Below, piece after piece: positions 209-53,836 of a stretch of 64,000 nt of DNA. The notes under the pieces were generated by a model. It ran no database searches, was not told the origin of the DNA, and saw only the letters and a list, made by a program, of their open reading frames with translations. Location: positions 1,194 through 65,193 of the forward strand of contig DBEYWP010000003.1 of the NCBI GenBank assembly GCA_048183675.1, in the 5' to 3' direction. Each line of letters opens with the position of its first letter. The stretch's first letter is position 1. The translations under genes were made by a program, and so were the position numbers. The stretch is from Collinsella sp. (GTDB lineage Bacteria; Actinomycetota; Coriobacteriia; Coriobacteriales; Coriobacteriaceae).

Positions 209-236
209 GAATGCGACAAAGGGTCAGTCTCTTTCC
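209..236. repeat. degenerate copy of palindromic repeat family 1 (GTGACAAAGGGAC-N-GTCCCTTTGTCAC)
   Basis: gaatgcgacaaagggtcagtctctttcc resembles the left half and part of the right half of the consensus seen intact at 20421, 23952, 25500, 36121 and 53804. Confidence 0.4.
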
Positions 237-429
237 TTGAATACAACTTCATCCGAACGCCTCCCGCATTCATCCGCACATATACGGATAAATTTGGGAA
301 TCCGATACCCTGAGGGCCGGATCGGCCGGCCCCGGGAGATCGGAGGACGCCATGTCCGGAAAGGGCGGGAAGGGCGCCGCGAGGGCGGTCCCGAGGACCC
401 ACGGCAGGCTCACCGGGTACGAGCGGGAC

Positions 430-680
430 ACGGTCCAGAGGATGCTGAAGCGCAGGGTTCGCTCGGCCACTTCCTCGAGAGGTTCAAGGGCGTATCGACC
501 CGCAGGCTCCACAGCTGCCTGATGTGGTTCAGATGGCTGCGCGAGGCCGCACGCGTCGGGGACAGGACGTCGCTCATGCGCGAGCAGCTCGACGACGGGC
601 GCTACGAAAAGATCCGGAAGAAGATGATGGAGCCGGAGTACGAGTTCCATCTGGAGCCGGACGTGCAAACGGCGGGTTAA
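430..680 (+). pseudogene. possible C-terminal remnant of an IS1595-like DDE transposase
   Basis: The ORF 237..680 tail ...HFLERFKGVSTRRLHSCLMWFRWL... fits the G-x-S-x-x-x-L-x-x-(Y/C)L-x-x-F-x-W tail I remember for IS1595/ISXO2-type transposases. No catalytic region lies upstream. The upstream part of the ORF is R/G-rich and looks non-coding. Confidence 0.3.
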
Positions 681-761
681 CATAGCCTTTCACCAAAAAG
701 GGCGAGCGGCCGCGCCCTGCGACCACCCGCCCTCAATCAAAGCCCTTCTCGGCCGCCGTAG

Positions 762-3700
762 CTACCGGTTCCGGCGCCGCAGGATAACGCCTGCGGCGAT
801 CAGCACCACCGCGCCGCCCGCGATGCCACCCAGGGCCATCGGCGACAAGCTGGTATCGCCCGTATACGGCAGACCCGGCTTCTCCTCCTTCGGCACCGGT
901 GACTTGCTCGGCGGATTGGTGGGCGGCTCCGTCGGCGGGGTGGTCGGCGGCGTGTACGTGTTCTTGAACACCGGCGCCACGGCGCCGTCATAGGTTACCG
1001 TCGCCACCAGATGGCCCGCACCGTCGTCCGTCACCGTCACCGTTACCCGGTGCTCGGCCGCGTCGTACGTCACGTTCTTCTGACCGTCGTCCACCTCGGA
1101 GATGCTGTAGGCGTACGTTCCGGGCTTGTCGTACGAGATCGCCTCGAAGCCCACCGTGCCGTCCGCCGCGTTCTTTGCGGTCTGCAGCACCTTGCCGTCG
1201 GCATCCTTCAGCTGGAAGGAGAACTGCCCTTCCTTCAGGTCCTCGCCGCTCAGCACCTTGGAGGCCCCCAGCTTCACCTCAGTCGCGGCCGGCGCGTAAC
1301 TGTTGCTGAACGCCACCGCATCCGCAGCCTTGCCGCCCTTGCTGTAGGCAACCTGCGCCTCCAGCGCGTGCGTCTCCGCATTCTCCGTCACCGTCACCGT
1401 CGCGGTAAAGACCGTCGTGTCGTAGGTGACGCCGTTCGCCGTCGCCCCTGCCCGCTCGGACACGGTGTAGACGTACGTCCCCACCTTGTCCAGCTGCAGC
1501 GGCGCGAAGCCGAACGTGCCGTCGGCGCCGTTCTGCACCGTCTGCACCACGTTACCGTCGGCGTCCTTCAGGTCGAAGAAGAACTCACCCTCGGCCAGGT
1601 CGCGGCCGGTCAGAGCCTTCGTTCCGGTAATCGTCGCCGTCGTTGCCGTCGGCGTGTAGGTGTTGGTGAAGGTCAGATCCGCAGCCGTCTTGTTCGCCGT
1701 CGCGGTCAGCTGGCCGCTGCCGTCATCGGTCACGTTCACCGTTACGTCCAGCACCGCATCGCTGTAAGTGATGGTGCCATCTTGGCCCGCAACCTCCTTC
1801 ACCTGGTACGTATGCGAACCAGTTGCGGTGTACGAGATGGCCTTGAAGGTAAACGCTTTACCCACGTTCGTGGTCCGGTCGATCTCCTGCCCGGTGGCCA
1901 CGTCAATCAGCGCGAATGTGAACTCGCCATCGGCGGGCGTCCGCGTGGTGGCCGGGTCGGCATTCTCAAGCACCTTGGTGCCAGAGATCTGGTAGGAGGT
2001 CTGACCCGGCTGGTAGCTGTTCGCAAACGTCATGGTATTGGGGGTGACGCCGTTCTCGGTGCCCTCGCTCGGTTTCACCGTAGAGCTCTCTACCACCAGC
2101 TTGCCGTCGTTGTTGTCCTTCACCACGTAGGTCAGGGTGTACGTCTTGCCGGTGTAGGTCACGCCCGGCACGCCCGGCGCGCCGTCCGTCGGCTGCACCT
2201 CACGGACCGTGAAGGGAAAGGTGCCCGCATGGTCGAAGGTCAGCTCGTTAAAGTAAACCTTGCCCTTGGCGTCGTTCTTCTGGGTCTGGAGCACCGTACC
2301 GTCAGACCCCACCAGCTCGAAGGCGAAGTCTCCCGCCTTTAGCTGATAGCTGCCGTCGTGCACGTCAACGCTCTTGGTGAGGGCGATCGCGCCGGAGTTC
2401 GTCGCCTTCGCCTTGTAGGTGTTGGTGAAGGTGGGCTTCGTGGCGTCCGCGCCGTCGTAGGCGACGCTCGCCTGCAGCGTGCCGGCATTGTCCACAACCG
2501 TCACCACGGCATGATGCACCGCGTCGTCGTAGGTCACGTAGGCCAGATCACCCTTCCGCTCCACGATAGTGTACTCGTACGTGCCCGGCTTCGCGTAGGA
2601 GAAGGCGTCGAAGTTAACACTTCCGTCCGCGCCGTTGGTCGCGGTCCGGACGGGCTTGGCCCCGGCAAGCTGCTCAGCAGTCATTTTGCCCTCGTACACA
2701 TCGAAGGTGAACTCGCCGTCCTTGGGGACGATCGGCGTGTTGTCGTCCTTCTTCACATAGCTCTTCTGCGCACCAAGGGCCAGACCGGTCGCGGCCGGCT
2801 GGTAGGTGTTGGTGAAGGTATCCGAGCCGGATGCGCTCGTCACGATCGCCTTCGCATTCAGTGCTCCGTTCCCGCCGTCTGTGACCGTCACCGTATAGGT
2901 GAGGGCATGATTGTCATAGACCATGCCCGGCTCCGCGCCCGGCTGCTCCACGATGGTGTAGGTGAAGTCCTTGCTCGCGGCGCCGTCCAAGTCGGAGAGC
3001 TGGAACTCGCGCGTGAAGCAGACCTTGCCGTTTGCATCGTTCTTCGCGGTGGCGATCACGTTGCCGGCAGCGTCCTTCAGGTCGAAGGTGAACTCGCCGT
3101 CCGCAGGCTTCGTCGTGTGATCGAAGCCGTCCGCAACCTTGATGGTCTTGGTCGCCGTCAGCTCCACGGATCCCTTTGCGGTGTAGGTGTTGTTGAAGGT
3201 GGGAGCCGTAGCGGCACCGTCATAGGTGACGGTCACCTTCGTCTTATTGTTGTCGTCCTGGTTCTGCTCTACCTTGACGTGGACCTTGACTTCCTTGGCG
3301 TCGTAGACCACGCCGTCGACGGTTTGGCCCGCTTTCTCCTCCTTGAGCGTGTAGTCGTACTCACCCAGGTTCAGGCCCTTGACGGTCAGCTTGACCTTGC
3401 CGCCCTGGTCGTTGGTGCCGCGGGCAACCTCGTTGCCAGCCTGGTTGTACAGGCCGAAGGTAAACGCGTCGGACGTCAGGTCCTTGCCCGCGAGAACTTT
3501 CATGGCCTCGACGGTAACGTCCGTCGTCGGCTTCGAGTTGGTGAAGGTCGGCACGGCCTTCTCGCCGTCGTAGGTGGCGACCGCCTTCAGCTCGCCCTTC
3601 TCGTCGGTGACCTTGACGTGGACCTTCACGTCCTTCGCGTCGTAGACGATGGTCGAGTCGTTGCCGGCAACCTCCTTGATGGCGTAGTCGTGATCGCCCG

Positions 3701-6700
3701 GCGTAGCGTAGTCGATGGCTGCAAAGGCGACCTTGCCGTCCTTGTCGTTTTGGACAGCCTGGAGCTCTTTGCCGTCGTTGTCGAGCAGCTGGAACGTGAA
3801 GTCGTTCCCTGCGAGCTCACCACCTGTGAAGCGCTTCTTCGCCTTGAGCGTTACCGAGGTCCCCTTCGGTCGGTACGTGTTCGTGATCTTGGCGATTTTG
3901 TCAGCGACCTTGATCGGGTTGTCCTCATGGCTCACGCCGTCGTCGGTGTAGGTCTGCTCCATCTTGACTGCCGGCTGCGACAGCGTGCCGTCGCCGTTAT
4001 CGCTCACCGTCACCGTGACGCGGTAGGAAGCGCTTGAATACCCGAACCCGGGCAGCCAGCTAGCGTCGTTTTGAGACGGCGTGGCCTCGGCGATGAGATA
4101 GGTGTAGGTGCCGGGCTTGGTGTACTCAATCTCGCCGAAGTCGAACTTGTCCCCGTTCTCAACGGTCTTCACAACCTGCTTCATACCACTCACGGGTGCA
4201 TTCTCGGCACCGTCGGGCATCGGCGTGCCCTTGTCCGCGCGCAGGTAAATCTTGAAGCTATCGCCATCTTTCCAGTCACGGCCCTGGAGCACCTTCTGCG
4301 CCCAGAACGCATTGGTGAGCGTCACCGGCGACTTTACGCTGTAGGTGTTCGTGAATACCAGCTTGTTGGCGTCGGCCAGTGTGCCGTCGGCGTTCTGCTT
4401 TGCGATCGTGCCGGAGATGCTGTCGCCCTCGCCACTCAGGGCGTTGCCGCCCTGCTCGCGCTTGGTCAGCGTGAAGCCGGCCGGCATCTTGTCCGTACCG
4501 GTCAGCTCCTGCACCGTGTAGGCGTCGTGCTCGGCGAGGCCGTACACGCGGATCGTCTGGCCGGCCGTGATGGTCTGCTCGCGACCGTTCGTCAGGTCGA
4601 ACATATCGCCGACCTGCTTCTCGCTTGCGGCCCCAGCGTTCTTGAACACTGCAGCCTTGTAGGTCTTCCCATCAGGCACGGTGAACTTGAAGGTGAACTT
4701 TGCGTCCTTATTGCCCGTCAGGCCATTGGGCACGACAACCTTCTTCGTCACCTCAAGGCTCGCCTCGCGTTCGTTCGCCACGCGCACGCAGGTGGCGCCC
4801 GTGAACAGGGCGTTCAGGTTCATGTCGCCCAGATTGGCACGGGCACCTTTCGACGTGGTCCCCTTGGGCCGCTCGTCCTGCATGATACCCATACGTATCC
4901 AGCCCGTCTCGGTCTCCAAGCGATAAGGTTTACCCTCCTCGGTGGGCCCATACTGGTAGACACGTCCGTTGGCGCCGTACTTGAGGTGCACCTCATCCTC
5001 GCCGCCCTTGGCGTCATTGTTCCAGGAAAGGTTGTCGTTGCCGTCGAGCTTGCCGTCGGACGTCTGGCGCGTACCCTTGATCCACGTGAGCGTGTTGTCG
5101 ATGTCGCCCTCTGCGCCAAACTGGTCCAGACTCTTCATGAGCGCGCCCGGGCCCACGAACGTCGAAACGCCGTCATCGTCCGTACCAGCATCGGCATGGA
5201 CGCCGCAATCGTCCACAATCACCTTGGTGAGCGTGTCGTTAAGCAGGAAGCCCTTGGGAGCCGAGACCTCCTTTAGGAAGTAAGTTCCATTCACGAGCGG
5301 CCTGTTACCGTCGCTTGTATTCGGGAATATGCCCGCACCTTCGAGCGGGACCGGGTTGCCGACCGACCCCGTCCTCAGGGTGTCGTAGGGGTCCTGGCCG
5401 TCCTTGAGCACGACCTTGCCGTTCGCATCCGTAGTCACCTGGGTGGACTTGTACAGGCCGAACTTCGCGCCGTCTACGGGGTTGCCCTCGGTATCGGTCT
5501 TCTGCACGAACAGGCGGTTCTGGATGTTCGTGACGAGCAGGCGCGTGGCGAACTGTCGCTGGAAATTCTTCTCGCCGCTGGGGAGGTCATCGCTGAACAC
5601 GTGGACCGTGTTGTCCGTATTCGCGTTGGCGATGGAACTCGCCGTTGTGTGGTAGATGGCCACCGTGTACTCGGCATCCTTGCGGTCATTACCGCTCAGC
5701 AGGTAGTAGTACTTGGAGATGTCGCCGGGCAGATTTTGAATCTCTACCTGGTACTGGCCGCTCGTGTTGAGCGTGAAGGCGTGCAGGTCCTTCTTCGCCG
5801 CCTCGATAGCGCCGGCTTTGCTCGGCTTCTCGGCGAGGGTGTACCCCATTCCCGTCGATGGGTCGCCCGACACGGCGTACCAATTGTTCTGATTTTTGAT
5901 ATCTGCGTTTGCGCTTTTATCGCGCTTGAGCACCACAGCGAACAGTATGCCAGACTTCAGGTTGACGGTCTCGTCGGACTTCGTCAGGTCATCATTCGCC
6001 TTGTACACGTTCACCGGTGCGGTGATGGTCTCCTTCGCGCCGGCAAACGCACCAGTCTTCCACACGACGCTGTCCGCATCCATACCGCCGCGGTTGATGA
6101 TGACGCCGCCCGCGCCGTTCTCAGCGCTCGCGGGCACGTACTCGAGCTGCATGCTGCCACCTGTCGCCGTGAGACTCGAGCGGTATCCCTCCGGCACGCG
6201 CGTCTCCTTCAGGAGGTAGTACTTGTTACCGTGATTCTTGTTGTAGAGATCGTCGAAGTTGATGACGCCGTTGTCATCGTCGTTCGTGAGCGTTAGGTGG
6301 CCGGCCTCGTCCGTGGTGCCGGAGCCGAGGAGCGCGTTCTTGTCATTGGTCGTATCTGTAAAGTTCTCGTCTGTTTTGTACAGCGCGAACTCGGCGCTCT
6401 GTACGAACTTGCCGTCCTGGTCGAACTTTATGATGTCGGACTCGGGCACCGTCACGAGGTTGAACTTGAGCTCCATGTTGGAGTCGGTGGCGCCGCGCTC
6501 CAGGTAGAAGAACTTGAGGGTGTGGTTGGTGTCGTCGGCGAAGGTGTTGTCTTTCCAGCTCGTCTCGCCGGCCTTGCCCGCCTCCTGGTACTTGCTCTTC
6601 AGCGTGCCGTTGTAATTGTCGTTTACCTTAATGTCGCCCGTATGAAAGTTGATGCTCAGACTCGCGCGGTTGTGAATACCGCCGATATCACTCACGAGGA

Positions 6701-7520
6701 CATCATCGATGAACACCCAGACGTCATCATCGCCGGCGAACTCGAACACCATGTCGTCGCCCGCGTTCATCTTGCCGCCAGCAGGCTGCACGAATCGCGT
6801 GGACATTGAGAGGCCGAAGTGGTGGTTGACGGGGCGGCCGCCGTTGTAGCGCGAATCACCGGTGTTGTCTGCCTTGATGCCGGTTTGGACGAGCTGGCCG
6901 TTTTCCTCTTTGAACACCTTGTCTGCCGCGTCGAACGGGAAGAACTGACCCTGGTGGGACGAATCGCCCACTTTGTCAATGCCCCAGGTGTCATAGATGT
7001 CGAAGGCATTCTTGTCAGCGTTGTAGGCTGCGTAGTTTTCGGAGCTGTCATAGACGTAGTAGCCGCCCTGAACCTTGAGGAGGCCCGTCACGCCAAAATG
7101 GGACGTCTTGCCGGTCTGGGCAGAGGAATCGAACAGGTAGCGGAGGGACTCGTCGCCCAAGGCTTCGGAAAGCTTCGGGTAGCCGTCTGAAAGCGTGTTG
7201 TTGACGATGCCGGGCCGCGGGCTCGTGCTGCCCGTCCATTGGTTGAGCGGCTCATCACCCTTGCCGTCGTTAAACTGGAACTTGTGGCCTGCGTTGACGC
7301 CGCCGCTGCCGGAAACCGACAGATGGTCATCGGGATTCACCCAGTAATCAAACAGGTTGATCGTCGTCCCCGAGGGCGAGGTCGTCGGAACCGTGTGGTC
7401 GGAGATCGCCGCCTCGGCACGAAGCGGCAGGAAGAAGCTCGCCGTCAGCGCGACGGCGAGGGCCAGAACAATCGCATATGGCGAAACCGGGCGCAGCCCA
7501 CGACGGCGGCCATAAGACAT
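762..7520 (-). CDS. giant LPXTG-anchored surface adhesin: signal peptide, fibro-slime/PA14-like domain, SpaA/CnaB-like domains, nine tandem Spy0128-type pilin-isopeptide domains
   Basis: Start moved to the ATG at 7520 (MSYGRRRGLRPVSPYAIVLALAVALTASFFLPLRAEA, a signal peptide). The N-terminal TINLFDYW...FFPFD...GDDDVWVFIDDVLVSDIGGIH matches the fibro-slime domain signature. LKETRVPEGY and FLKEVSAPKGF are CnaB/SpaA-type motifs. Nine repeats follow the pattern GEFTFxLxDxxGxxxxTxxNxxxGxVxFxxIxYxxxGTYxYxIxE...VTVTDxGxGxL...FTNTY. The C-terminus has LPYTG, a hydrophobic helix and RRRNR. Confidence 0.85.
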   Translation of the reverse strand: MSYGRRRGLRPVSPYAIVLALAVALTASFFLPLRAEAAISDHTVPTTSPSGTTINLFDYWVNPDDHLSVSGSGGVNAGHKFQFNDGKGDEPLNQWTGSTSPRPGIVNNTLSDGYPKLSEALGDESLRYLFDSSAQTGKTSHFGVTGLLKVQGGYYVYDSSENYAAYNADKNAFDIYDTWGIDKVGDSSHQGQFFPFDAADKVFKEENGQLVQTGIKADNTGDSRYNGGRPVNHHFGLSMSTRFVQPAGGKMNAGDDMVFEFAGDDDVWVFIDDVLVSDIGGIHNRASLSINFHTGDIKVNDNYNGTLKSKYQEAGKAGETSWKDNTFADDTNHTLKFFYLERGATDSNMELKFNLVTVPESDIIKFDQDGKFVQSAEFALYKTDENFTDTTNDKNALLGSGTTDEAGHLTLTNDDDNGVINFDDLYNKNHGNKYYLLKETRVPEGYRSSLTATGGSMQLEYVPASAENGAGGVIINRGGMDADSVVWKTGAFAGAKETITAPVNVYKANDDLTKSDETVNLKSGILFAVVLKRDKSANADIKNQNNWYAVSGDPSTGMGYTLAEKPSKAGAIEAAKKDLHAFTLNTSGQYQVEIQNLPGDISKYYYLLSGNDRKDAEYTVAIYHTTASSIANANTDNTVHVFSDDLPSGEKNFQRQFATRLLVTNIQNRLFVQKTDTEGNPVDGAKFGLYKSTQVTTDANGKVVLKDGQDPYDTLRTGSVGNPVPLEGAGIFPNTSDGNRPLVNGTYFLKEVSAPKGFLLNDTLTKVIVDDCGVHADAGTDDDGVSTFVGPGALMKSLDQFGAEGDIDNTLTWIKGTRQTSDGKLDGNDNLSWNNDAKGGEDEVHLKYGANGRVYQYGPTEEGKPYRLETETGWIRMGIMQDERPKGTTSKGARANLGDMNLNALFTGATCVRVANEREASLEVTKKVVVPNGLTGNKDAKFTFKFTVPDGKTYKAAVFKNAGAASEKQVGDMFDLTNGREQTITAGQTIRVYGLAEHDAYTVQELTGTDKMPAGFTLTKREQGGNALSGEGDSISGTIAKQNADGTLADANKLVFTNTYSVKSPVTLTNAFWAQKVLQGRDWKDGDSFKIYLRADKGTPMPDGAENAPVSGMKQVVKTVENGDKFDFGEIEYTKPGTYTYLIAEATPSQNDASWLPGFGYSSASYRVTVTVSDNGDGTLSQPAVKMEQTYTDDGVSHEDNPIKVADKIAKITNTYRPKGTSVTLKAKKRFTGGELAGNDFTFQLLDNDGKELQAVQNDKDGKVAFAAIDYATPGDHDYAIKEVAGNDSTIVYDAKDVKVHVKVTDEKGELKAVATYDGEKAVPTFTNSKPTTDVTVEAMKVLAGKDLTSDAFTFGLYNQAGNEVARGTNDQGGKVKLTVKGLNLGEYDYTLKEEKAGQTVDGVVYDAKEVKVHVKVEQNQDDNNKTKVTVTYDGAATAPTFNNTYTAKGSVELTATKTIKVADGFDHTTKPADGEFTFDLKDAAGNVIATAKNDANGKVCFTREFQLSDLDGAASKDFTYTIVEQPGAEPGMVYDNHALTYTVTVTDGGNGALNAKAIVTSASGSDTFTNTYQPAATGLALGAQKSYVKKDDNTPIVPKDGEFTFDVYEGKMTAEQLAGAKPVRTATNGADGSVNFDAFSYAKPGTYEYTIVERKGDLAYVTYDDAVHHAVVTVVDNAGTLQASVAYDGADATKPTFTNTYKAKATNSGAIALTKSVDVHDGSYQLKAGDFAFELVGSDGTVLQTQKNDAKGKVYFNELTFDHAGTFPFTVREVQPTDGAPGVPGVTYTGKTYTLTYVVKDNNDGKLVVESSTVKPSEGTENGVTPNTMTFANSYQPGQTSYQISGTKVLENADPATTRTPADGEFTFALIDVATGQEIDRTTNVGKAFTFKAISYTATGSHTYQVKEVAGQDGTITYSDAVLDVTVNVTDDGSGQLTATANKTAADLTFTNTYTPTATTATITGTKALTGRDLAEGEFFFDLKDADGNVVQTVQNGADGTFGFAPLQLDKVGTYVYTVSERAGATANGVTYDTTVFTATVTVTENAETHALEAQVAYSKGGKAADAVAFSNSYAPAATEVKLGASKVLSGEDLKEGQFSFQLKDADGKVLQTAKNAADGTVGFEAISYDKPGTYAYSISEVDDGQKNVTYDAAEHRVTVTVTDDGAGHLVATVTYDGAVAPVFKNTYTPPTTPPTEPPTNPPSKSPVPKEEKPGLPYTGDTSLSPMALGGIAGGAVVLIAAGVILRRRNR

Positions 7521-7814
7521 GACGGACCACCGCTCGCGCGGCCGGTGTTCACCAGGAAGTTCCCTGCTTAGACACCCCCCGGTAGCAATATTCACGAGTC
7601 GAAACGTCGTCTCTCTGAGCTCCTGCATTATTTCCTCCCCAGTCACACGGCGACCTGCCCGGGTGCTCCCCGGGGGCCGAGGCAGTCTGGCACATGCCCG
7701 CAGTCGTTCAAGGAATACCAACCCCAGCATATGTCTCTTAAGATATCTTAGTCTTTTTCTATAACAATTTTTGTCTCATTACCGATGAAATCGGCTCAGT
7801 CCCCTTGTCGCATT

Positions 7815-9258: not shown

Positions 9259-9291
9259 AACGTGGCAAAGAGGCGGTCCCTTTGCCACGTT
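9259..9291. repeat. variant copy of palindromic repeat family 1
   Basis: aacgtggcaaagaggcggtccctttgccacgtt has a 12-bp perfect stem and shares GGCAAAG...GTCCCTTTGCC with the family consensus. It lies 9 nt downstream of the ABC ATPase stop. Confidence 0.6.
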
Positions 9292-9299
9292 CGCTTGCA

Positions 9300-10082
9300 T
9301 TATTTGTCGTTGAGATAACGCGAGAGGAACTCGCGGGTGCGCTGGTGCTTAGGATTGCCAAAGAGCTCAGCCGGCGCGGCGTCCTCGAGCACCACGCCCT
9401 GGTCCATAAAGACCACGCGGTCGGACACGGTACGCGCGAAGGCCATCTCGTGGGTAACGACGACCATGGTCATGCCGTCGGCGGCGAGCTTGCGCATAAC
9501 GTCGAGCACCTCGCCCACGATCTCGGGATCGAGCGCAGAGGTAGGCTCGTCAAACAGCATGATCTGCGGGTTCATGCACAGGGCGCGGGCGATGGCAACG
9601 CGCTGCTTTTGGCCACCGGACAGGCGACCAACCGCGGCATGGGCGAATTTTTCGAGTCCCACGCTCGCCAGATGCTCCATCGCGACCTGTTCGGCCTGAT
9701 CTTTGCCCATCTTTTTGAGCGTGACGGGCGCGAGCGTGCAGTTGTCGAGCACATCCATGTTGTTGAACAGGTTGAAGCCCTGGAACACCATGCCGATGTC
9801 CTCACGCAGCTTGTTAATGTTGCAGCGCTCGGCCGTGAGATCCTGGCCGTGGAACCAGATGTGACCCGTGTCCGGAGTCTCGAGCAGGTTGAGGCAGCGC
9901 AGAAAGGTCGATTTGCCCGAGCCTGAGGCGCCGATGATGGTGACGACCTCGCCGGGGCTAACGGCCAGGTCGATGCCCTTGAGCACCTCGAGCGAGCCAA
10001 AGCTCTTGCGCAGGCCCTCAACGCGGATGAGCGGCTCTTTGGTTTGCGCGGCCGCAGCGCCGGTAGTAACGGTATCTGCCAT
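9300..10082 (-). CDS. amino-acid ABC transporter ATP-binding protein (GlnQ/HisP-like)
   Basis: Walker [10 protein letters not shown], signature [15 protein letters not shown] and Walker [13 protein letters not shown] are present. Start set at MADTV (ATG at 10082). Confidence 0.9.
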
Positions 10083-10104
10083 GATGAATCTCCTCGTCTT
10101 GCGC

Positions 10105-11253
10105 CTAGTTGGAGCTGGGCAGCGTGGCCGGAGCCTCGGCACCGAGCTTTTTGCCAAAGGCCTCGAGCAGGCGGCTCGCCACGAGCGTCAGGATCAGGTA
10201 GACCACGAGCGCCACGCAGTAGACCTCCATCTGGCGGTAGTACACGCCGGCGACGGTGGTGGTAGCGTACATGAGGTCGAACACGCCGATGACCGAAAGC
10301 ACTGACGAGTCCTTGATGTTGATGATGAGTTCGTTGGTGAGTGCGGGGATCGCGTTTTTAATGCCCTGCGGGAACACGACCTTGCGCATGGCCTGCCATT
10401 GCGACAAGCCCAGCGAGCGCGCCGCCTCGGCCTGGCCGGGGTCGATGGACTCGATACCGCCGCGCAGGACCTCCATCATATAGGCGGTGGAGTTGAGCGA
10501 AATGGTGACAAGACCCGCGGTAAAGGTGCTCCAGATCTGGTTGGCCTGCGCCGTCTCGAAGCCCATGCCGCGCAGAACGGTAAAGCCCGCGTAGTAGATG
10601 AGCAGGCCCTGCACCATCATGGGCGTGCCGCGTACGATGGTGGAGTAGACGGTCGCAAAGCCGCGGCCGATACTCTTAAAGAAGCGCACCAGGTCGTTAT
10701 CCACGCGGTCGAACGTCTGAATGCGTAGGAACACGAAGAGCAGCGCCAGGAAGAATGCGACGACGGTGCCGAAGGTGGCAAGCGCGATGGTGATCTCGAT
10801 ACCGCGGATAAAGAAGTCCCCGCTCTTGTAGGTCATGTAGACCAGGCTCGACAAAAAGTCGCTGGGGTTGGAATCCGAGACAATGCTCACCTGTACCAGG
10901 TCGATAAATGACATGACGCAGCGGTCCACGAAAAAGATCGCCGCGATTGCGACCACGACGTAGCTGCCCAGGCGTGCGCCACGGCGGCAACGCTCGGAGG
11001 CGAACGGCGACGTTTCGCGATAGTCGTTCCAGTGCATGAGCTTGGTGACCAGCGCCGCCGCCGACACGACGAGCCAGGCCCAAAGAATCGCCCAAAGGCA
11101 ATCTTGGAACACGCCCGTGGGGACCAAGAAGCTCAGCGGCGTGGGGTTGCGCTGGCTAAACGCCAGGCCGAGCGCCGCGATGACGCTCGTGCCCAGGTAT
11201 ACATAACGGTGGTCGGCCTTGATAAAGGAGGCCAGGCGATTAATGGTTTTCAT
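10105..11253 (-). CDS. amino-acid ABC transporter permease with extended N-terminal membrane domain
   Basis: The EAA-loop [21 protein letters not shown] and multiple TM segments are present. GGGAGG lies upstream of the ATG. Confidence 0.85.
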
Positions 11254-14400: not shown

Positions 14401-14432
14401 AATGCGATAAAGGGACTGCTCCTTTGTCGCAT
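14401..14432. repeat. palindromic repeat family 1 copy (slightly diverged)
   Basis: aatgcgataaagggactgctcctttgtcgcat lies 70 nt downstream of the MerR stop. Confidence 0.8.
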
Positions 14433-14501
14433 CGAAGTTGCGGTGGAATAGTTCCTGTTTGCACGCCCACTCGAGCTATTTAGGGACTATTTCACCGCAA
14501 G

Positions 14502-15368
14502 TTATTTGAGGGCGACGGGGATTTGGATACAGCAGAAGTCCTCTTGGTGAGACTCGTCGTAGCTCGTGGTGTCCAGGTAGCAAAAATCGAAAGCATTGCC
14601 GATGGGCTGGAGCGCGTGCCTGTCCATGCAGGCCACGATGGCGCGGATACCCTCGGGCTCGTACGGCATGCCCCAGCGACTCATGCACAGGTACGTGCCC
14701 TCGGGCAGCACCTCGACGCCAATCTCCGCCAGCTCGGCAGGATCGCTCGGCAGTATTTCCTCGGCACCACGCGGCAACACGGCAAAGGAACCGGCACCGG
14801 CGATGGGGTCGTCGGAATGCAGCGCCTCGCGACGCAGCATGGCGCCCCAACCGCGCATGGGGCGTGTGCCCGTGAGCGCACGCATGCGCAGAATCGCCCG
14901 CATGAGCGTGGGGTGCAGCATCGAGCGGCCACGCTCGATATCGCTCGGGAACTCCTCAAAGACCACGTAGCGGCGCTCGAATTGCTTGAGCTCCGGTTTG
15001 CCCTCGCGCTCGCGCCAATAGACCGCCTCGTCGTAAAAACTCAGCCGCTCCTGCACGCTCGCGCGCTCGGCTTTGAGCCCGGCAATCTGCTCGTCGAGCG
15101 CCTGCACCCGCGAGCGCAGGTGATCGGTCATCTCTCCAATGTCGAACGTCGAGGTCAGGCGATCGATCTCATCGAGTTCCAGTCCCAAGTCGCGCAGCAT
15201 GCAGATCAGACGCATGAGCGGGATCTGCGTGGGCGAATAGAAACGGTAGCTTTTTTCGTTAACCACGGCGGGTTTAAACAGACCGATCTTGTCGTAGTAG
15301 ATGAGCGTTTGGCGCGAAACGTTAAACAAGCTCGCCATCTCGCTAATCGCATACATACCCGTCTGCAT
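14502..15368 (-). CDS. MerR family transcriptional regulator with GyrI-like effector-binding domain
   Basis: The N-terminal HTH is MYAISEMASLFNVSRQTLIYYDKIGLFKP...YRFYS. A coiled coil and a C-terminal domain of about 150 aa resemble BmrR/GyrI-like regulators. Start at the ATG at 15368, with GGAGG immediately upstream. Confidence 0.8.
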   Translation of the reverse strand: MQTGMYAISEMASLFNVSRQTLIYYDKIGLFKPAVVNEKSYRFYSPTQIPLMRLICMLRDLGLELDEIDRLTSTFDIGEMTDHLRSRVQALDEQIAGLKAERASVQERLSFYDEAVYWREREGKPELKQFERRYVVFEEFPSDIERGRSMLHPTLMRAILRMRALTGTRPMRGWGAMLRREALHSDDPIAGAGSFAVLPRGAEEILPSDPAELAEIGVEVLPEGTYLCMSRWGMPYEPEGIRAIVACMDRHALQPIGNAFDFCYLDTTSYDESHQEDFCCIQIPVALK

Positions 15369-15459
15369 AGGTCCTCCCGACACACCCTTTGACACGAAAA
15401 GCCCGCCGCCCACAGGGGCAGCGGGCTCAAACACTACTCGTATCCTACCCTAAAGATGC

Positions 15460-16038
15460 CTATGACCAGCGCTTATAGTTGGCGCACGACACGCCGACGG
15501 CCTCGAGTGCCTTGGCGGCGATGTGATGCACCGCCTCATCGAGCGTGGCGGGGCCGTTGTAAAACGTGAGCATGGGCGGCATGAGCATGACACCCGGCAC
15601 GCGCGCCAGGCGTGCCATGTTGTCGACATGGATCGCACTGAAGGGCGTCTCGCGCACCATAAGCACCAGGCGGCGCTGCTCTTTCATCTGCACATCGGCC
15701 GCACGCAGCAACAGGTTTTCGCTGTAGCCGCTCGCGATGCCGGCGAGCGTCTTCATGGAGCAGGGAGCCACGATCATGCCGTCGACCGGATAGGTGCCGC
15801 TTGCGATGGCAGCGCCAATGTTCTTGTTGTCGTAGACCACATCGGCATAGCACGCAAACTCGTCGAGCGTCATGCCGAGCTCCTGCTCGATGGTGATCTC
15901 TCCCCCGCGCGTGACGACAAGCGCCGACTCAGCGCCGGCCTGGCGCAGGCATTTGAGGCATTCAAGGCCCAGTGCCGCACCGCTGGCGCCAGACACGCCA
16001 ACGACAATGCGACGGGGACGAACAGAAGACTCAGGCAT
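15460..16038 (-). CDS. ubiX: UbiX-family flavin prenyltransferase
   Basis: RIVVGVSGASGA...VAPCSMKTLAGIASG...L, with length 192 aa. AAGGAG lies upstream of the ATG. Confidence 0.9.
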   Translation of the reverse strand: MPESSVRPRRIVVGVSGASGAALGLECLKCLRQAGAESALVVTRGGEITIEQELGMTLDEFACYADVVYDNKNIGAAIASGTYPVDGMIVAPCSMKTLAGIASGYSENLLLRAADVQMKEQRRLVLMVRETPFSAIHVDNMARLARVPGVMLMPPMLTFYNGPATLDEAVHHIAAKALEAVGVSCANYKRWS

Positions 16039-16071
16039 GACAACTCCTTAACTACTTGGTAGGGCTACTTA

Positions 16072-17559
16072 CTAGAAGGCGAGCTCGGCGGCCCACTTGT
16101 CCTTGTCGATCTCCATGAACTGCGAGCGGATGAAGTTCTTCTTGAGGTTAAACGGAACCGTGCAGTCGAAGATGGCCTTGCAGGCGATACCGTGCTCGCG
16201 GATCGAAGGATCGAACGCGGGGTCGTTGGACGGATCGAGCACGTGGCAGTGGCAACCGGGGATGGTGATGAGGTCCACGTCGGCCTGGAAGCGCGTGGTC
16301 ATGGCCCACATCACGTCGCTCATATCGAAGATGTCGACATCCTCGTCGACAAGGATGACGTGCTTGAGCTCGGAGAACGCCGAGAAGGCGAGCATGGCGG
16401 CGTTGCGCTGACGGCCCTCGTCATTTTTGCTCGACTTCTTGAACTGCATGATGGCAACGAACTTGCCGCCACCGCAGGGAGCGGCGTGAACGTTGAGCAG
16501 GCGGCCCGGGATAGCGGTCTCGACCATCTTGTAGATGGAGGCCTCGGTGGGGATACCGGCCATGGACACGTGCTCGTGCGAAGGGCCGATGCAGCTCTCC
16601 ATAATGGGGTTGACGCGCGTGGTGACGGCGGTGATCTTGATCACCGGGCAGACCTTGGCGCCACCGGTGTAGCCGGGGAACTCGGGCATGGCGTAGCCGT
16701 GGCCGTTGACATCCTCGTTGATGGTCTCGTCGTGCATGAGGTAGCCCTCGAGCACGTACTCGGCATTGGCAATGCACTTCTGCGGAACGGTGACGCAGTC
16801 GGCAAGCTCGACGGCGCGGCCGCGCAGGGCGCCGGCGATCTGCAGCTCGTTGAAGCCGAGCGGCGTGGTGGGAGCCTCGAAGCCGCAGCACATGTACACG
16901 GCGGGGTCCAGGCCGATGGAGATGGAGATGGGCATATCCTCGCCGCGCTGGCAGTACTCGTCAAAGAACGCACCCAGGTGACGGCTGCCCGGGGTGATCC
17001 ACATGGCGAGCTTGTCCTTGTCGACGCAGGAGAAGCGGTGGATGGTTACGTCGGACTGGGTGCCATCGGGGCTCGTGCCATAGGCGAGGCCCATGGTGAT
17101 GTAGGGGCCGCCGTCAACGGGCGTGTTGGTGGGAGCGGGAACGATCTTGCGCAGGTCAAAGCCCTCGTCGGTCGCCTTGTACACGACCTCCTGGCAGTCG
17201 ACGTGCTTGCCCTCGGCGATCTGCTCGGGGGCGATCAGGTTCTCGAAGCGCTTGCCGATCTCGAGGCCCAGGTGCTCCTCGTCCAGGTCGAGCAGGGCGG
17301 CAACGCGCTTGCGGCTGGCAAGCATACCGATGCAGACCTTGGCGTCGTCAAAGCCCTTGACGTTGTTGAAGACCATCGCCGGACCCTCTTTGGTCGGGCG
17401 CATGACGGTGCCGCCAGCACCGACATGACGGTAGACGCCCGAGACCTCGGCATCGGGATCGACCTGGGTGTCGGTCTCGAGCAGCTGGCCCGGCATCTCA
17501 CGCAAAAAGTCGAGCGCGGAACGCAGGTCGTGGATCTGGGAAGCATCGGTAGTGGACAT
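16072..17559 (-). CDS. UbiD-family (prFMN-dependent) decarboxylase, hydroxyarylic-acid decarboxylase C-subunit-like
   Basis: VSGVYRHVGAGGTVMRPTKEGPAMVFNNVKGF, VVYKATDEGFDLRKIV, PEFPGYTGG and SMAGIPTEASI are blocks I associate with the LpdC/BsdC/VdcC clade (from memory, not searched). Start at the ATG at 17559, with AGGAG upstream. Confidence 0.9.
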   Translation of the reverse strand: MSTTDASQIHDLRSALDFLREMPGQLLETDTQVDPDAEVSGVYRHVGAGGTVMRPTKEGPAMVFNNVKGFDDAKVCIGMLASRKRVAALLDLDEEHLGLEIGKRFENLIAPEQIAEGKHVDCQEVVYKATDEGFDLRKIVPAPTNTPVDGGPYITMGLAYGTSPDGTQSDVTIHRFSCVDKDKLAMWITPGSRHLGAFFDEYCQRGEDMPISISIGLDPAVYMCCGFEAPTTPLGFNELQIAGALRGRAVELADCVTVPQKCIANAEYVLEGYLMHDETINEDVNGHGYAMPEFPGYTGGAKVCPVIKITAVTTRVNPIMESCIGPSHEHVSMAGIPTEASIYKMVETAIPGRLLNVHAAPCGGGKFVAIMQFKKSSKNDEGRQRNAAMLAFSAFSELKHVILVDEDVDIFDMSDVMWAMTTRFQADVDLITIPGCHCHVLDPSNDPAFDPSIREHGIACKAIFDCTVPFNLKKNFIRSQFMEIDKDKWAAELAF

Positions 17560-17701
17560 GGCGTACTCCTTTCGGGAGAGTGTCCGGCGACGGGGTGCCG
17601 CCGGACGGGGTAACGTAATGGGGCCGCGGCGCTCACAAATGGAGCGCTCGACCACTCGAAGTTCAAGCGCTTGGCTGCTTACAGCCGGGGCGCTCGACCG
17701 C

Positions 17702-51583: not shown

Positions 51584-51652
51584 GGTTTCCTCCCAGGACT
51601 CAATCCCCGTCAATACAAACCCGCCCGTTCGCAGACAAACCTCGAGCGTCGA

Positions 51653-53680
51653 CTACGGCCGCTCGTTGGGGGCCAGGCGTTGCATCTTGTTCACAGCCTT
51701 GAACTTGGTGAACAGCGGCACATACTCAAAGCTCACGTTGGAGTTCTCCAGGCCGTACCAGCGTGCAGGCGTGCCGGCGGCGCGGCGGATGATGTACTTG
51801 AGCGTGATGGCCGTACGCTCGCTGGGCTCCACATCGCTTTCGGGCGCCAGAAGCTTACGGATCAGGACGAACTTGAACGTGCCGATGTTACCCGGATCCT
51901 TGTAGACCGAGTAGTCATGCGTCTGCGGCGGCAGCTCGCCGGTGGCAGCCAGGTCCTGAACAACCTGACGCAGGTAAGCATTGACGCGCTGGTTGATCTT
52001 GTAGCCCAGGTACAGATGCACGCGGAACACGTAGTCGGTGCCGAACGTCTCGACCGAATAGGCAAAGGTGTGCGGTTCGTCCATGGTCTCGACATTCACA
52101 AACCACCAGGCGCGGGCGCGCTTGGGATGCTTATCCAAGATCGAGTAAACGATATCGCGGTCGATGTAGTCGGTATGGGTGTCCTTGGTCAGGTACACGA
52201 TGTTGTCGCTCACGAGCTCGTAACGGTCGTCGTCGCGCAGGCGCTTGAGCTGCGGCAGGTAGCTGCGCAGCGGCAGTAGCGTAAACTGGCGCTGCTCGAC
52301 CGCCGTGCCGTTGTACCAGCACACCATAATGCCCATGATGAGTGCAGCCATAAGGATGGTGAAATAGCCGCCGTGGAAGAACTTGGTGAGCGAACTCACA
52401 AAGAAGAAGCCTTCGAGCAAAAGGAAGAAGGCCACGAAGATCCACGGAGCAACCTTGAGCTTGCGTTCCTCGTGCAGGTAGAAGAAGAGCAGCAGCGTGG
52501 TGCACATCATGGTCAGCGTAATGGCAAGGCCGTAGGCGGCTTCCATATGCGCCGAGTTCTGGAACAGCAGCACCACGATGACGCAGCCCACGAGCATGAC
52601 GTTGTTGACCATGGGAATATAGAGCTGGCCCTTGGTCTCGGCAGGATAGAAGACCTGCATGTGCGGCATAAGGTCCAGACGGCTGGCCTCGGACACCAGC
52701 GAGAATGCGCCGGTGATGAGCGCCTGCGAGGCAATGATGGCCGCGACGGTGGAAAGGCCGACGGCAAAGGGACGCAGGCCCGGGGTGAGCATCTGGTAGA
52801 AGGGGTTGAGGTCGGCGATACCCATGAGCTCGGGGTTGGCGGCGTTGTTGATAAGCCACGCGCCCTGGCCCATATAGGAAAGCAGCAGACAGCACTTAAC
52901 GAACGGCCAGGTGGCGTAGATGTTGCCGCGGCCCACGTGGCCCATGTCGGAATAGAGCGCCTCGGCACCGGTGGTGGCAAGGAAGCAGCTGCCCAGAATC
53001 ATGATGCCCGCGTGGTTGTTGGGGCTCAACAAAAAGCCGATGCCACGCAGCGGGTTGAGGCACAGCAGCACCGCGGGGTGCTGGAAGACAAAGAACAGAC
53101 CCGTGCCGCCCAAGAACAGGAACCACAGCGTCATGATGGGGCCAAAGGCGTGACCGATCTTGGCCGTACCGATACGTTGTACCAAGAAGAGCGCGATGAT
53201 GATGGCAAGCGTGATGGCCACGACACGGCCCTGATCGTCACCCAACACAGCATGGACCGCCGGGATGGTGCGCAGGCCCTCGATGGCCGTGGTAACGGTA
53301 ACGGCGGGCGTCAGGATGCCGTCAGCGAGCAATGCGGCGCCGCCCAGCATGGCGGGGATGATGAGCCACTTGCCGCAACGCTTGACCAGGCTGTACAGAG
53401 CAAAGATACCGCCCTCGCCGTGGTTGTCGGCGCGCAGCGAGATCAGCACGTACTTGACGGTCGTCAGCAGCGTGACCGTCCACACGACAAGGGAGAGCGC
53501 GCCGAGCACGAACTCCTCCGTGACGCTTCCGATGCCGCCGTTGCCGGCAACGAGTGCCTTGGTTACATACATGGGGCTGGTGCCGATATCGCCATACACC
53601 ACGCCCAGCGTGACGAGCATCGCCGAGATGCTCACAGGAATCGCAGCGTGCGAGGCTGCCTCCTTGGCCTTTTGTTCCAT
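51653..53680 (-). CDS. kup: KUP/HAK/KT potassium transporter
   Basis: LGVVYGDIGTSPMY, the signature N-terminal motif, is present. There are 12 TM segments and a cytoplasmic C-terminal domain. Start at the ATG at 53680, with GGGAGGAA upstream. Confidence 0.9.
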   Translation of the reverse strand: MEQKAKEAASHAAIPVSISAMLVTLGVVYGDIGTSPMYVTKALVAGNGGIGSVTEEFVLGALSLVVWTVTLLTTVKYVLISLRADNHGEGGIFALYSLVKRCGKWLIIPAMLGGAALLADGILTPAVTVTTAIEGLRTIPAVHAVLGDDQGRVVAITLAIIIALFLVQRIGTAKIGHAFGPIMTLWFLFLGGTGLFFVFQHPAVLLCLNPLRGIGFLLSPNNHAGIMILGSCFLATTGAEALYSDMGHVGRGNIYATWPFVKCCLLLSYMGQGAWLINNAANPELMGIADLNPFYQMLTPGLRPFAVGLSTVAAIIASQALITGAFSLVSEASRLDLMPHMQVFYPAETKGQLYIPMVNNVMLVGCVIVVLLFQNSAHMEAAYGLAITLTMMCTTLLLFFYLHEERKLKVAPWIFVAFFLLLEGFFFVSSLTKFFHGGYFTILMAALIMGIMVCWYNGTAVEQRQFTLLPLRSYLPQLKRLRDDDRYELVSDNIVYLTKDTHTDYIDRDIVYSILDKHPKRARAWWFVNVETMDEPHTFAYSVETFGTDYVFRVHLYLGYKINQRVNAYLRQVVQDLAATGELPPQTHDYSVYKDPGNIGTFKFVLIRKLLAPESDVEPSERTAITLKYIIRRAAGTPARWYGLENSNVSFEYVPLFTKFKAVNKMQRLAPNERP

Positions 53681-53803
53681 AAGCCGGTTTCCTCCCAACT
53701 TTAATGTTCGAAGGGATTATAGATAATCGGCCCATGTTTGAATGGCACTGTTTTCCCAGCTAGATAAACATTTATACGGCCTTTAGGCCACCGCGGCGAT
53801 ATG

Positions 53804-53836
53804 GAATGTGACAAAGGGACGGTCCCTTTGTCACAT
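53804..53836. repeat. palindromic repeat family 1, intact copy
   Basis: gaatgtgacaaagggacggtccctttgtcacat lies 4 nt downstream of the nitroreductase stop codon. Confidence 0.9.

Follow-up and report, generated by a model that had tools for sequence, protein, structure and literature searches.

REP elements are reported to act as barriers to 3′-exonucleases and as weak attenuators. Translation is reduced when a REP lies no farther than about 15 nt from a stop codon, and REP copies are substrates for inter-copy recombination. The SMAG repeats of Stenotrophomonas maltophilia are sequence-conserved stem-loops with a GTAG head that follow many genes. In the actinobacterium Mycobacterium tuberculosis, TRIT is a conserved terminator-like hairpin without a classical U-tail. 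Inverted pairs of the Neisseria DNA uptake sequence (DUS) act as terminators; DUS are also found as single copies and within genes, and they serve transformation. Integron attC sites and the Vibrio VCRs are 57–141 bp long and imperfect, with extrahelical bases. The REP/BIME elements of Escherichia coli and Salmonella are covered by the background literature (PMC3337134). The REPIN–RAYT systems of Pseudomonas and other bacteria couple inverted REP doublets, each with an internal spacer, to a flanked single-copy RAYT gene (PMC3116915, PMC5581495).

The window analysed here is a 64-kb stretch of Collinsella DNA. It carries copies of a palindrome with the consensus AATGTGACAAAGGGAC-N-GTCCCTTTGTCACATT, whose 5′-end reads A/G-ATGTGAC. 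The unit was rightly called a perfect palindrome in a preliminary description, which gave its length as 32 nt; it is 33 nt long, with two 16-nt arms around one unpaired central nucleotide (16+1+16). Five near-perfect copies, two diverged copies, two decayed copies, and one half copy were found in the window:

210..242, minus strand: decayed copy on one side of a split hairpin, with the arm at 210–225 intact and the inner arm degraded
7799..7814, minus strand: half copy (single arm) on the other side of the split hairpin, abutting the stop codon of an M20 peptidase gene (7815–7817)
9259..9291, minus strand: diverged, paired copy in which the changes at positions 3 and 7 are compensated (dG −24.3)
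14401..14433, minus strand: diverged, paired copy of the C5/G29 subtype, at the left border of a variable 6-kb block
19377..19409, minus strand: decayed copy; its 5′ arm extends over the final codons and stop codon (19401–19403) of a PAC_bac/NUDIX gene
20420..20452, unstranded: near-perfect copy bordering the variable 6-kb block on its right
23952..23984, minus strand: perfect copy at a convergent site, 11 nt past the stop codon of a DUF4143/AAA_14 ATPase gene (23996..25381)
25500..25532, minus strand: perfect 16+1+16 copy, 8 nt past the stop codon of a 111-aa gene (25541..25876)
36119..36151, plus strand: full intercistronic copy, 7 nt past the stop codon of an MFS gene (34855..36111)
53805..53837, minus strand: full copy, 2 nt past the stop codon of a nitroreductase gene (53840..54712)

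All five near-identical copies of the preliminary description were recovered, three of them with starts corrected by 1–2 nt, and its diverged copies at 9259 and 14401 are still paired. The partial copies reported at 209 and 19379 are present as the decayed copies 210–242 and 19377–19409, and the half copy at 7799–7814 had been overlooked. The distances to stop codons, given earlier as 4–13 nt, were measured as 8 (9259), 11 (23952), 8 (25500), 7 (36119), and 2 nt (53805). Copy 9259 follows an ABC ATPase gene (9300..10157) and, in the sense of this gene, is followed by GUUUUUGG and then by the ribosome-binding site of the peptidase gene; other lineages have an unrelated GC-rich hairpin at this position instead. 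Copy 14401 is located 68 nt past the stop codon of a MerR-family gene (14502..15434). The ATPase gene starts 118 nt downstream of copy 25500, and an oxidoreductase gene starts 30 nt beyond copy 36119. All 10 copies lie in the non-coding 11% of the window, in agreement with the intergenic location first described, except that copy 19377 runs into the NUDIX gene; in other genomes this copy is intact and holds the TGA stop within the hairpin. Location at a gene 3′-end does not hold for copy 20420, which lies in a divergent region between a NUDIX gene (likely start 20384) and an MFS gene.

The 16-nt half-site, with up to three mismatches allowed, matched 15 times in the 64-kb window against 0.31 matches expected by chance, and none of 100 shuffled sequences had as many, which confirms the dispersed palindrome as real. 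The palindrome was present in more than 120 genome loci, nearly all labelled Collinsella. No match was found among the 2.9 million viral contigs of IMG/VR, and carriage by phages was rejected on this basis. Rfam held no family matching the palindrome, and the full-text literature search for its sequence returned unrelated eukaryotic papers only. Mapping across approximately 2 Mb of related sequence, which established that the motif extends beyond the window, gave 63 distinct flank-defined sites; effective sample sizes are small because the repeat served to recover many of the loci and because numerous sites are orthologues of one another. Loci totalling 1.07 Mb and picked independently of the repeat contained 132 copies, and the resulting density (approximately 0.12 copies per kb) is high, as first proposed. 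Most copies have 0–3 mismatches to the consensus.

The REP-like behaviour that had been suggested, namely that of a dispersed hairpin with a conserved stem, located at gene 3′-ends, was upheld by the 63 sites, their unconserved flanks, and the compensatory changes in the stem. The palindrome is a genus-specific dispersed repeat family of Collinsella, in the REP-like class of intergenic palindromes, and this family appears to be previously undescribed. A published human-microbiome catalogue of structured RNAs includes Collinsella motifs that may overlap with the palindrome. Collinsella is an abundant, medically studied, and extremely strain-diverse gut genus for which apparently no dispersed repeat family had been described. 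A 33-nt tag at about one gene in six provides a genus-specific marker for gene-end annotation, strain typing, and binning, and it flags likely assembly break points.

Like REP/BIME, the Collinsella palindrome is short, occurs outside genes in hundreds of copies, both at gene 3′-ends and within operons, and forms an RNA hairpin without a U-run. It is found in Coriobacteriia, whereas REP is found in Proteobacteria. Its stem is perfect where that of REP is imperfect with a bulge; it lacks the GTAG/CTAC head, its copies are solitary and not arranged in BIME clusters, and it lies much nearer the stop codon, which it often contains. SMAG and TRIT are likewise conserved stem-loops after genes, but their sequences, lengths, and taxa differ and homology is not implied. 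Neisseria DUS share the fixed short sequence, the inverted pair, and the position just past genes. In contrast to single and intragenic DUS, the Collinsella unit is almost always the full palindrome and lies outside coding sequence except for the stop codon. The attC sites and VCRs are also palindromic, lie directly past stop codons, and border variable cassettes, whereas the Collinsella palindrome has no integrase, attI, or one-directional array, and most copies follow core genes. REPINs, like the Collinsella palindromes, are vertically inherited, long-lived, near-identical populations with a master consensus and subtypes (PMC3116915, PMC5581495). The stem subtypes seen here are C5/G29 and G7/C27. 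The Collinsella copies occur singly, whereas REPINs are doublets with a RAYT, and approximately 2 Mb of loci yielded no flanked Y1 gene.

The position of the palindromes relative to genes is closely set. Thirty-eight of the 63 sites lie between −7 nt (inside) and +12 nt of a stop codon. At approximately 18 sites the stop codon is within the hairpin, either as the TGA of ATGTGAC or as a TAA/TGA straddling position 1; palindromes containing the stop codon are a feature outside the preliminary description. The sites comprise 28 tandem, 16 convergent, and at most six divergent ones, and the extragenic location is thus biased to gene 3′-ends and to convergent and tandem regions. Among the mapped sites, neither palindromes nor half-sites were found within coding sequence except at stop-codon overlaps. 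The loop base, read in the sense of the upstream gene, is more often A (27 sites) than T (8 sites; p = 0.002).

The consensus folds into a hairpin of −27.7 kcal/mol (z = −8). Intact copies form stable stem-loops with dG of −20 to −28 kcal/mol and z-scores of −3.8 to −8. Across 91 distinct copies, 91.8% of the cells are paired, double changes occur in 7 of the 15 pairs, and none of 500 shuffles reached the observed stem covariation. Variation had been described as confined to the central loop, which is not the case: positions 1 and 33 and pair 15/19 often vary, and positions 3, 4, 5, and 7 vary with compensation. The orthologues of copy 36119 keep pairing through differing compensatory changes. 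Those of copy 20420, in a divergent promoter region, have decayed and lost pairing, and copy 19377, which is followed by a canonical terminator, decays too. Stem diversity among orthologues (pi 0.07–0.13, two sites left out) is not below that of the flanks; purifying selection on the primary sequence is therefore not evident and was rejected. Stem pairs in the sense strand include 25 G.U against 13 A.C (p = 0.07), whereas the loop-adjacent pair 15/19 is A.C at 18 sites and G.U at 10, the opposite of what RNA-level selection predicts. This orientation test was set aside: it gives weak support to RNA-level pairing in the stem and is reversed at 15/19. Conversion by other copies, or repair in an extruded DNA hairpin, could be an alternative source of the compensatory-looking changes. 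The symmetry down to a 1-nt centre exceeds the need of an RNA hairpin, which hints at a constraint or origin at the DNA level.

Ordinary stranded RNA-seq coverage from a related strain showed the effect of the hairpin on transcription. At one copy followed by UUUUGU, the depth decreased from 420–490 to 74–170 (approximately 70%). At two expressed copies without a U-run, the drop past the hairpin was 20–45%, with mostly read-through and no reported pile-up of 3′-ends. The hairpin alone is a weak transcription attenuator, and the hairpin with a U-run coincides with a strong coverage drop at one site. The proposed relation to transcript ends thus finds weak support: the drop is strong where a U-run follows, and attenuation is weak elsewhere. 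Copy 36119 showed background-level expression, the 23952/25500 block is absent from the RNA-seq strain, and at L013 the sequence of this strain diverges just past the hairpin. A U-run directly after the stem is uncommon: C or G directly flanks the stem at 29 of 36 sites (sense), and at least 4 T occur in the next 8 nt at approximately 4 of 36. Copy 9259 is among the latter, so the earlier statement that no copy has a U-run applies to most copies only. Canonical GC-rich hairpin-plus-U terminators of unrelated sequence occur elsewhere in the window; the gene-end scan behind this result missed the 33-nt hairpins owing to its fixed window sizes and was used solely for the existence of canonical terminators. 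Outward promoters from the −35-like TTGTCA in the arm were also considered and rejected, as few sites (36119 and one other) have a −10-like hexamer at a suitable spacing.

We hold with moderate confidence that the palindromes are a genus-specific family of the REP-like functional class, which serves as a 3′-end mRNA hairpin and as rearrangement homology or a fragile site. The family would have reached hundreds of intergenic positions before the sampled lineages split, and its copies would since have been inherited vertically at fixed sites. The transcribed palindrome is predicted to fold into a 15-bp hairpin (approximately −25 kcal/mol) at the extreme 3′-end of the upstream coding region. By analogy with REP, it is probably a barrier to 3′-to-5′ exonucleases that defines and stabilises the mRNA 3′-end. 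Where the hairpin begins no more than approximately 12 nt from the stop codon, ribosomes that terminate there would have to melt it, and the hairpin could therefore, speculatively, tune termination or the coupling to the next gene. The stop-in-stem hairpins offer a natural system for studying what a strong hairpin does to the release of ribosomes, the decay of mRNA, and the polarity of operons in a Gram-positive bacterium of high GC content. Identical 33-bp palindromes may also act as portable homology and/or as fragile hairpin sites, so that recombination between copies and insertion into copies would create the borders of strain-variable gene blocks.

Several other explanations share part of this evidence. 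Ordinary intrinsic terminators, alike by convergence only, would account for the 3′-end position, often between convergent genes, and for the strong coverage drop at the copy with U's. This explanation is hardly credible: more than 60 sites share the same 33 nt with 0–3 mismatches and invariant length, most have no U-run and are followed by C or G, read-through is high without a U-run, and the canonical terminators elsewhere in the window are unrelated. Judged from the sequences, it is already contradicted by the identity among copies. A binding site for a dimeric protein (a regulator or a nucleoid or segregation protein), or an uptake signal like the inverted DUS of Neisseria, would fit the perfect symmetry, the strong primary-sequence conservation of most copies, and the outer motif TGTGA...TCACA, which superficially resembles a regulator half-site. 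We consider it very improbable. Symmetric changes are complementary (e.g., T5/A29 to C5/G29) and so preserve pairing without restoring symmetric-dimer binding, the 16-bp arms far exceed typical half-sites, and the copies lie at stop codons, not at promoters. Uptake sequences occur singly and inside genes, whereas isolated half-sites are rare here (9 against 162 full copies at comparable stringency), are mostly decayed palindromes, and are absent from coding sequence beyond stop overlaps. A selfish REPIN-like element without host function, moved through a single-stranded DNA hairpin by a single-copy RAYT or IS200-type Y1 enzyme, is doubtful yet accounts for more of the data: the copies are dispersed, near-identical, and strictly 33 nt long with unconserved flanks, their effect on transcription is weak, and strand-specific insertion could explain their biased orientation relative to genes. 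The 3′-end position would then merely reflect tolerated insertions, which alone leaves the peak at 0–12 nt past the stop codon unexplained. Pairing is kept at a 3′-end site and lost at a promoter-region site, which speaks against this reading. Collinsella does encode Y1 HUH transposases. However, the only Y1 genes in approximately 2 Mb of Collinsella loci, searched with an approximate IS608 TnpA query, were of the IS200 type (L046, L184); these elements end in hairpins unrelated to the palindrome, and IS200-type TnpA was rejected as the mobilising enzyme. No repeat-flanked Y1 gene was found. In the window, the Pfam scan of 46 gene-map ORFs and three alternative ORFs detected no Y1, RAYT, or other transposase and no integrase; the preliminary description was right about the missing RAYT gene, and its suggestion of a RAYT substrate found no support. 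No GTAG-type head is present beside the stem, and the flanks compared across sites showed no conservation outside the 33 nt. REPIN doublets and BIME clusters are absent as well: the palindromes are solitary, with the nearest pairs approximately 200 nt or more apart and unrelated spacers. Flank comparison at solo copies revealed no flank motifs, target-site duplications, or consistent flanking direct repeats, and no transposase-carrying relative was found, which does not fit a MITE; the arms of the palindrome are trivially inverted repeats in this comparison. Among lineages that are 5–12% diverged, solo copies almost never have a clean empty counterpart, which gives no indication of recent mobility.

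Under the preferred reading of a REP-like family, the palindromes may also matter for genome rearrangement. Three large strain-variable blocks in the window are bounded by hairpins or inserted into them:

235..7796, unstranded: 7.56-kb insertion in a hairpin apex, encoding a 2322-aa FctA/SpaA surface protein
14434..20419, unstranded: 6-kb block between two hairpins, with MerR regulator, flavoprotein, UbiD, transporter, and NUDIX genes
23921..25539, minus strand: block of hairpin, ATPase gene, and hairpin; PADLOC PDC-S01 candidate

The hairpins are associated with the borders of strain-variable blocks, a feature outside the preliminary description. The 7.56-kb insertion splits the hairpin of 210–242 and 7799–7814, of which an intact single form lies between the same flanks at L147:20108, and it duplicated approximately 10 nt of the hairpin apex. 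The 6-kb block is missing from at least 19 loci, which retain a single hairpin; its deletion left a chimeric hairpin behind. The ATPase block does not occur in the RNA-seq strain and is lacking at 43 of 79 metagenome loci, and a GAGCG duplication is present on both sides of it. The breakpoints of the 6-kb and 1.6-kb indels are 0–10 nt from hairpins.

These blocks also bear on a cassette-exchange site, at which a hairpin-recognising recombinase or nuclease would insert and excise cassettes by analogy with attC. The position after stop codons would follow because every cassette ends with a stop codon. Three variable blocks at or in hairpins within 64 kb agree with this, as do the apex and GAGCG duplications, the different cargo of one slot (in L188, a DUF4143 ATPase occupies the position of the window's 6-kb block), and several PDC-S01 candidate defence genes with hairpins at both sides. 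We nevertheless consider a dedicated exchange system quite unlikely. Most copies come after ordinary, stably placed housekeeping genes, further indels of this region lie away from hairpins, and the sample is partly hairpin-ascertained. The junctions of the three events differ (a single remaining hairpin, no remaining hairpin, or a hairpin that is split), which fits opportunistic recombination better than one dedicated enzyme. The arrangement is not that of an integron, as the window has no integrase, array, or common cassette orientation and the copies are on both strands among core genes, nor is it that of a CRISPR, as the copies are kilobases apart with genes between. The DUF4143 ATPase was rejected as a general partner gene since its paralogue (21959..23329) is hairpin-free and most hairpins have no nearby ATPase. 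That the palindromes are preferred, hairpin-targeted integration or exchange points for accessory genes, parallel to attC with no known integrase, we regard as unlikely. In this window, their cargo would then comprise candidate phage-defence ATPases (PDC-S01), a pilin-like adhesin of giant size, and a decarboxylase operon (UbiD/UbiX), and a hairpin- or cruciform-cutting nuclease might be involved.

If the link between hairpins and blocks holds genome-wide, the repeats would help to explain the gain and loss of accessory and defence genes in Collinsella. At one locus (L020), a partial copy of the palindrome adjoins a full copy.

The half-site AATGTGACAAAGGGAC (16 nt) had 15 matches in the window at up to 3 mismatches, against 0.31 expected, and none of 100 shuffled sequences came close. 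Together with the ten copies located by reading the sequence, this excess showed that the palindrome family 1 reported in the preliminary description is real. The single arm at 7799-7814, which abuts a stop codon, was absent from that description.

Family-1 copies in the window
210-242, decayed copy
7799-7814, single arm abutting a stop codon
9259-9291, diverged copy, still pairing
14401-14433, diverged copy, still pairing
19377-19409, decayed copy
20420-20452, near-perfect 33-nt palindrome
23952-23984, near-perfect 33-nt palindrome
25500-25532, near-perfect 33-nt palindrome
36119-36151, near-perfect 33-nt palindrome
53805-53837, near-perfect 33-nt palindrome

The unit length was strictly 33 nt in 162 of the 164 full copies of the first set, and flank comparison found no conservation beyond the unit. 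The base 3′ of the stem was mostly C or G and rarely T. RNA folding gave the consensus a 15-bp stem with a 3-nt loop (−27.7 kcal/mol, z = −8), and the window copies reached −20 to −25 kcal/mol. The most variable positions were 1, 33, the loop base and the loop-adjacent pair 15/19. The inner core is CAAAGGGAC-N-GTCCCTTTG. Hairpins that have only this inner core in common with family 1 (GGGGCAAAAGGGCAGTCCCTTTGCCCC; ACGGCGAAGGAACAGTTCCTTTGCCGT) were seen in related loci from other genomes, at L017:about 4690-4725 and, in L099 and L047, at a distance of about 500 nt from the hairpin that opens the locus. Such hairpins could belong to older or sister subfamilies.

The gene map was built by GC3-based choice of ORFs, and 46 gene-map ORFs and 3 alternative ORFs were checked against Pfam. 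The coding share of the window was 89%, and every family-1 copy was non-coding or merely touched a stop codon. In five window copies the gap from the upstream stop was 2-11 nt, and the 19377 copy overlapped the last codons and stop of a NUDIX gene. The 20420 copy was the exception, lying between divergently transcribed genes. Flank-based clustering of all related sequence examined gave 63 distinct sites, of which 16 were convergent, 28 tandem and at most 6 divergent, some of the latter being gene-calling artefacts. The hairpin lay between 7 nt inside and 12 nt past the stop codon at 38 of the 63 sites. About 18 sites had the stop codon within the hairpin, in one of two fixed registers, either as the TGA of A-TG-TGA-C or as a TAA or TGA formed by the preceding T and hairpin positions 1-2. 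One hairpin in L090 holds the ends of two convergent genes. The upstream genes were ordinary and mutually unrelated, including those for transporters, a peptidase, a nitroreductase, a HAD hydrolase, an FtsX-type permease and a methyltransferase.

Among 91 distinct copies, 91.8% of the cells were paired and two-sided changes occurred at 7 of 15 stem pairs (35 cells). The observed stem covariation was reached by none of 500 shuffles. At the post-stop site 36119, the orthologues had drifted to AATGCGGCAAGG...CCTTGCCGCAT-type sequences with pairing kept. The orthologues of the 20420 copy, in the divergent promoter region, were unpaired and decayed in 18 loci. The 19377 copy, which has a strong canonical U-run terminator (19311-19376) immediately after it, had decayed in the window as well as in several further lineages. 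The 9259 position was occupied by an unrelated GC-rich hairpin in other lineages. Taken together, these site contrasts suggest that a hairpin is favoured right after the stop codon and dispensable elsewhere.

In the orientation of the upstream gene, 27 sites had A as the loop base and 8 had T (p = 0.002), and G.U exceeded A.C in the stem (25 and 13, p = 0.07). Against a purely RNA-level reading, the palindrome symmetry reaches the 1-nt centre, A.C was commoner than G.U at pair 15/19, and the stem diversity of orthologues was not below their flank diversity. Copies of the C5/G29 and G7/C27 subtypes also exist, and conversion by such copies could be a source of the apparent double changes.

Transcription past the hairpin was followed in five regions with three stranded RNA-seq runs from a strain that shares about 95% identity with the window.

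Read depth across family-1 hairpins
L008:6704, U-run (UUUUGU) after the stem: 420-490 upstream, 74-170 downstream
Window 53805, no U-run: about 70-90 upstream, about 45-65 downstream, antisense background 20-40
L078:4958, no U-run: 530-720 upstream, 410-560 downstream over at least 200 nt

Expression at 36119 was low in this strain, which diverges at L013 and has no locus at 23952 and 25500. Unrelated canonical GC-rich hairpin-plus-U terminators are present elsewhere in the window. These terminators and the depths indicate that the palindrome by itself attenuates transcription weakly at best. At the one site covered where a U-run follows, it resembles an ordinary intrinsic terminator. The family differs from intrinsic terminators in having no U-run at most sites. 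The preliminary description had denied it to all window copies, which needs amending for 9259 alone, where GUUUUUGG follows in the sense of the upstream gene.

No transposase gene was found by Pfam among the window's 46 gene-map and 3 alternative ORFs. The genes between close hairpin pairs encode ATPases, membrane proteins, a UvrA paralogue and a 42-aa peptide, with no transposase among them. A tblastn search with an IS608 TnpA query returned IS200-type Y1 transposase genes at L046:6066-6566 and L184:about 2730-3180 (about 33% identity), and the end hairpins of these elements (CCACCCGCTACGCGGGTGG, CCACCCTTTTTAAGGGTGG) were unrelated to family 1. A diverged family-1-like hairpin was seen about 50 nt beyond the right end of the L184 element. 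The suggestion that family 1 is a RAYT substrate was not supported, there being no transposase in the window, no flanked RAYT gene found in about 2 Mb of Collinsella loci and no kinship with the IS200 ends; a RAYT gene may lie elsewhere in the genome. Family 1 also differs from REP/REPIN-RAYT systems in having neither the GTAG head nor doublets. No consistent target duplication was found at solo copies, and clean empty sites were almost absent among lineages 5-12% diverged. With no transposase partner, no target duplication and few empty sites, the family looks old and vertically inherited. By the usual criteria it is no MITE, and it is likewise neither an integron attC site nor a CRISPR repeat nor an uptake sequence.

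When the window was set against all syntenic loci, about nine indel loci emerged in the 14-40 kb stretch, and hairpins are involved in two of them. A third hairpin-associated block lies at the window start.

Strain-variable blocks at hairpins
Block a, 14434-20419: MerR regulator, flavoprotein, UbiD, transporter and NUDIX genes; missing from at least 19 loci
Block b, 23921-25539: hairpin, DUF4143/AAA_14 ATPase gene, hairpin
Block c, 235-7796: 7.56-kb strain-specific insertion with a gene for an FctA/SpaA-domain surface protein

The breakpoints of block a were 0-1 nt from the 14401 and 20420 hairpins. L079, which lacks the block, retains a single hairpin whose arms belong to two subtypes, the pattern that a crossover inside the palindrome would leave. 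In L188 the slot holds a different gene between the hairpins, encoding a DUF4143 ATPase. Block b was missing from the RNA-seq strain and from 43 of 79 metagenome loci, with no hairpin left in those 43, and the filled state showed a GAGCG duplication at the flanks. Block c interrupts a hairpin found whole in L147; the hairpin arms now lie apart, at 210-225 and 7799-7814, with about 10 nt duplicated at the apex. The 2322-aa protein of this block (762-7730, −) has nine FctA (Spy0128-like isopeptide) domains and a SpaA domain, and is a surface protein resembling pilins or adhesins.

Two AAA_14 + DUF4143 ATPase genes, at 21959-23329 (+, E = 1e-114) and 23996-25381 (−, E = 1e-188), matched PDC-S01, a candidate defence family in PADLOC. 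The presence of both varied between strains, and the 21959-23329 gene, which is not bordered by hairpins, was missing from at least 30 loci. The GGDEF diguanylate cyclase gene at 31660..32751 (indel 31132-32791) was missing from 18 syntenic loci, and its borders are not family-1 hairpins. Other regional indels also lay away from hairpins. Because the three junction types differ and other indels are not at hairpins, we read the blocks as the probable outcome of opportunistic recombination and insertion at a repeated hairpin-forming sequence. Such events are known for REP sequences and palindromes generally. The hairpin-bordered blocks do not by themselves establish dedicated cassette exchange, which is kept as an unlikely reading.

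Exact matching of the core against one genome per species gave at least 120 loci, nearly all labelled Collinsella; among the matches listed, a few were metagenome bins with other labels. The core had no match in 2.9 million viral contigs. Rfam gave no match at the gathering score, and relaxed thresholds returned only chance miRNA-like hairpins. Full-text literature searches with the sequence returned solely unrelated eukaryotic papers, and no description of family 1 was found in the literature on Collinsella repeats or terminators. To avoid ascertainment through the repeat itself, 80 metagenome loci were sampled with the PfkB-like protein (25863..26855) as anchor, and these held 132 copies in 1.07 Mb (0.12 per kb). 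Extrapolated from this density rather than counted, a genome of about 2.4 Mb would hold a few hundred copies. The REP-like character proposed earlier was borne out, since family 1 is dispersed and extragenic, lies at 3′ ends as a weakly attenuating hairpin without a U-run, and probably serves as a recombination substrate. Family 1 is best described as a new and genus-specific representative of the dispersed intergenic palindromes. It is unusual in being a perfect palindrome to its 1-nt centre, in adhering to or containing stop codons, and in bordering variable gene blocks, candidate defence genes included.

Other hairpins were also seen. A second repeated hairpin at 19311-19376 has a 21-bp stem (AAACCGTCACAACATTCGACG ... 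CGCCGAATGTTGTGACGGTTT) and a small inner hairpin (dG −47), with other copies at L007:355-420 and 5266-5330 and in L062, L079 and L088. Flanking A and T runs give it the look of a canonical bidirectional terminator, and at two separate sites it neighbours family-1 copies. A third family, with units GAGCGTGGATTTTCTCCC ... GGGAGAAAATCCACGC (dG −38.7), occupies 23857-23916 and the orthologous region in L121-L200, downstream of a 111-aa gene and an LMW phosphatase gene, and its number of tandem or partial units differs among genomes. A 56-nt imperfect palindrome unrelated to family 1 (TAGTCGTTGGGGACGTTCTTAAACGACTAGTC..., 12308-12363) lies in the 206-nt gap between an aldose epimerase gene and a solute-binding protein gene. 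The bacterial small SRP RNA was located at 63815-63910 (−) (Rfam RF00169, 62.5 bits). The GC content of the window was 57-64%, mostly about 61%. GC skew tracked gene orientation throughout, the coding strand being C-rich (negative for + genes, positive for − genes), so the skew turn near 20 kb is a gene-strand switch and not necessarily a replication landmark.
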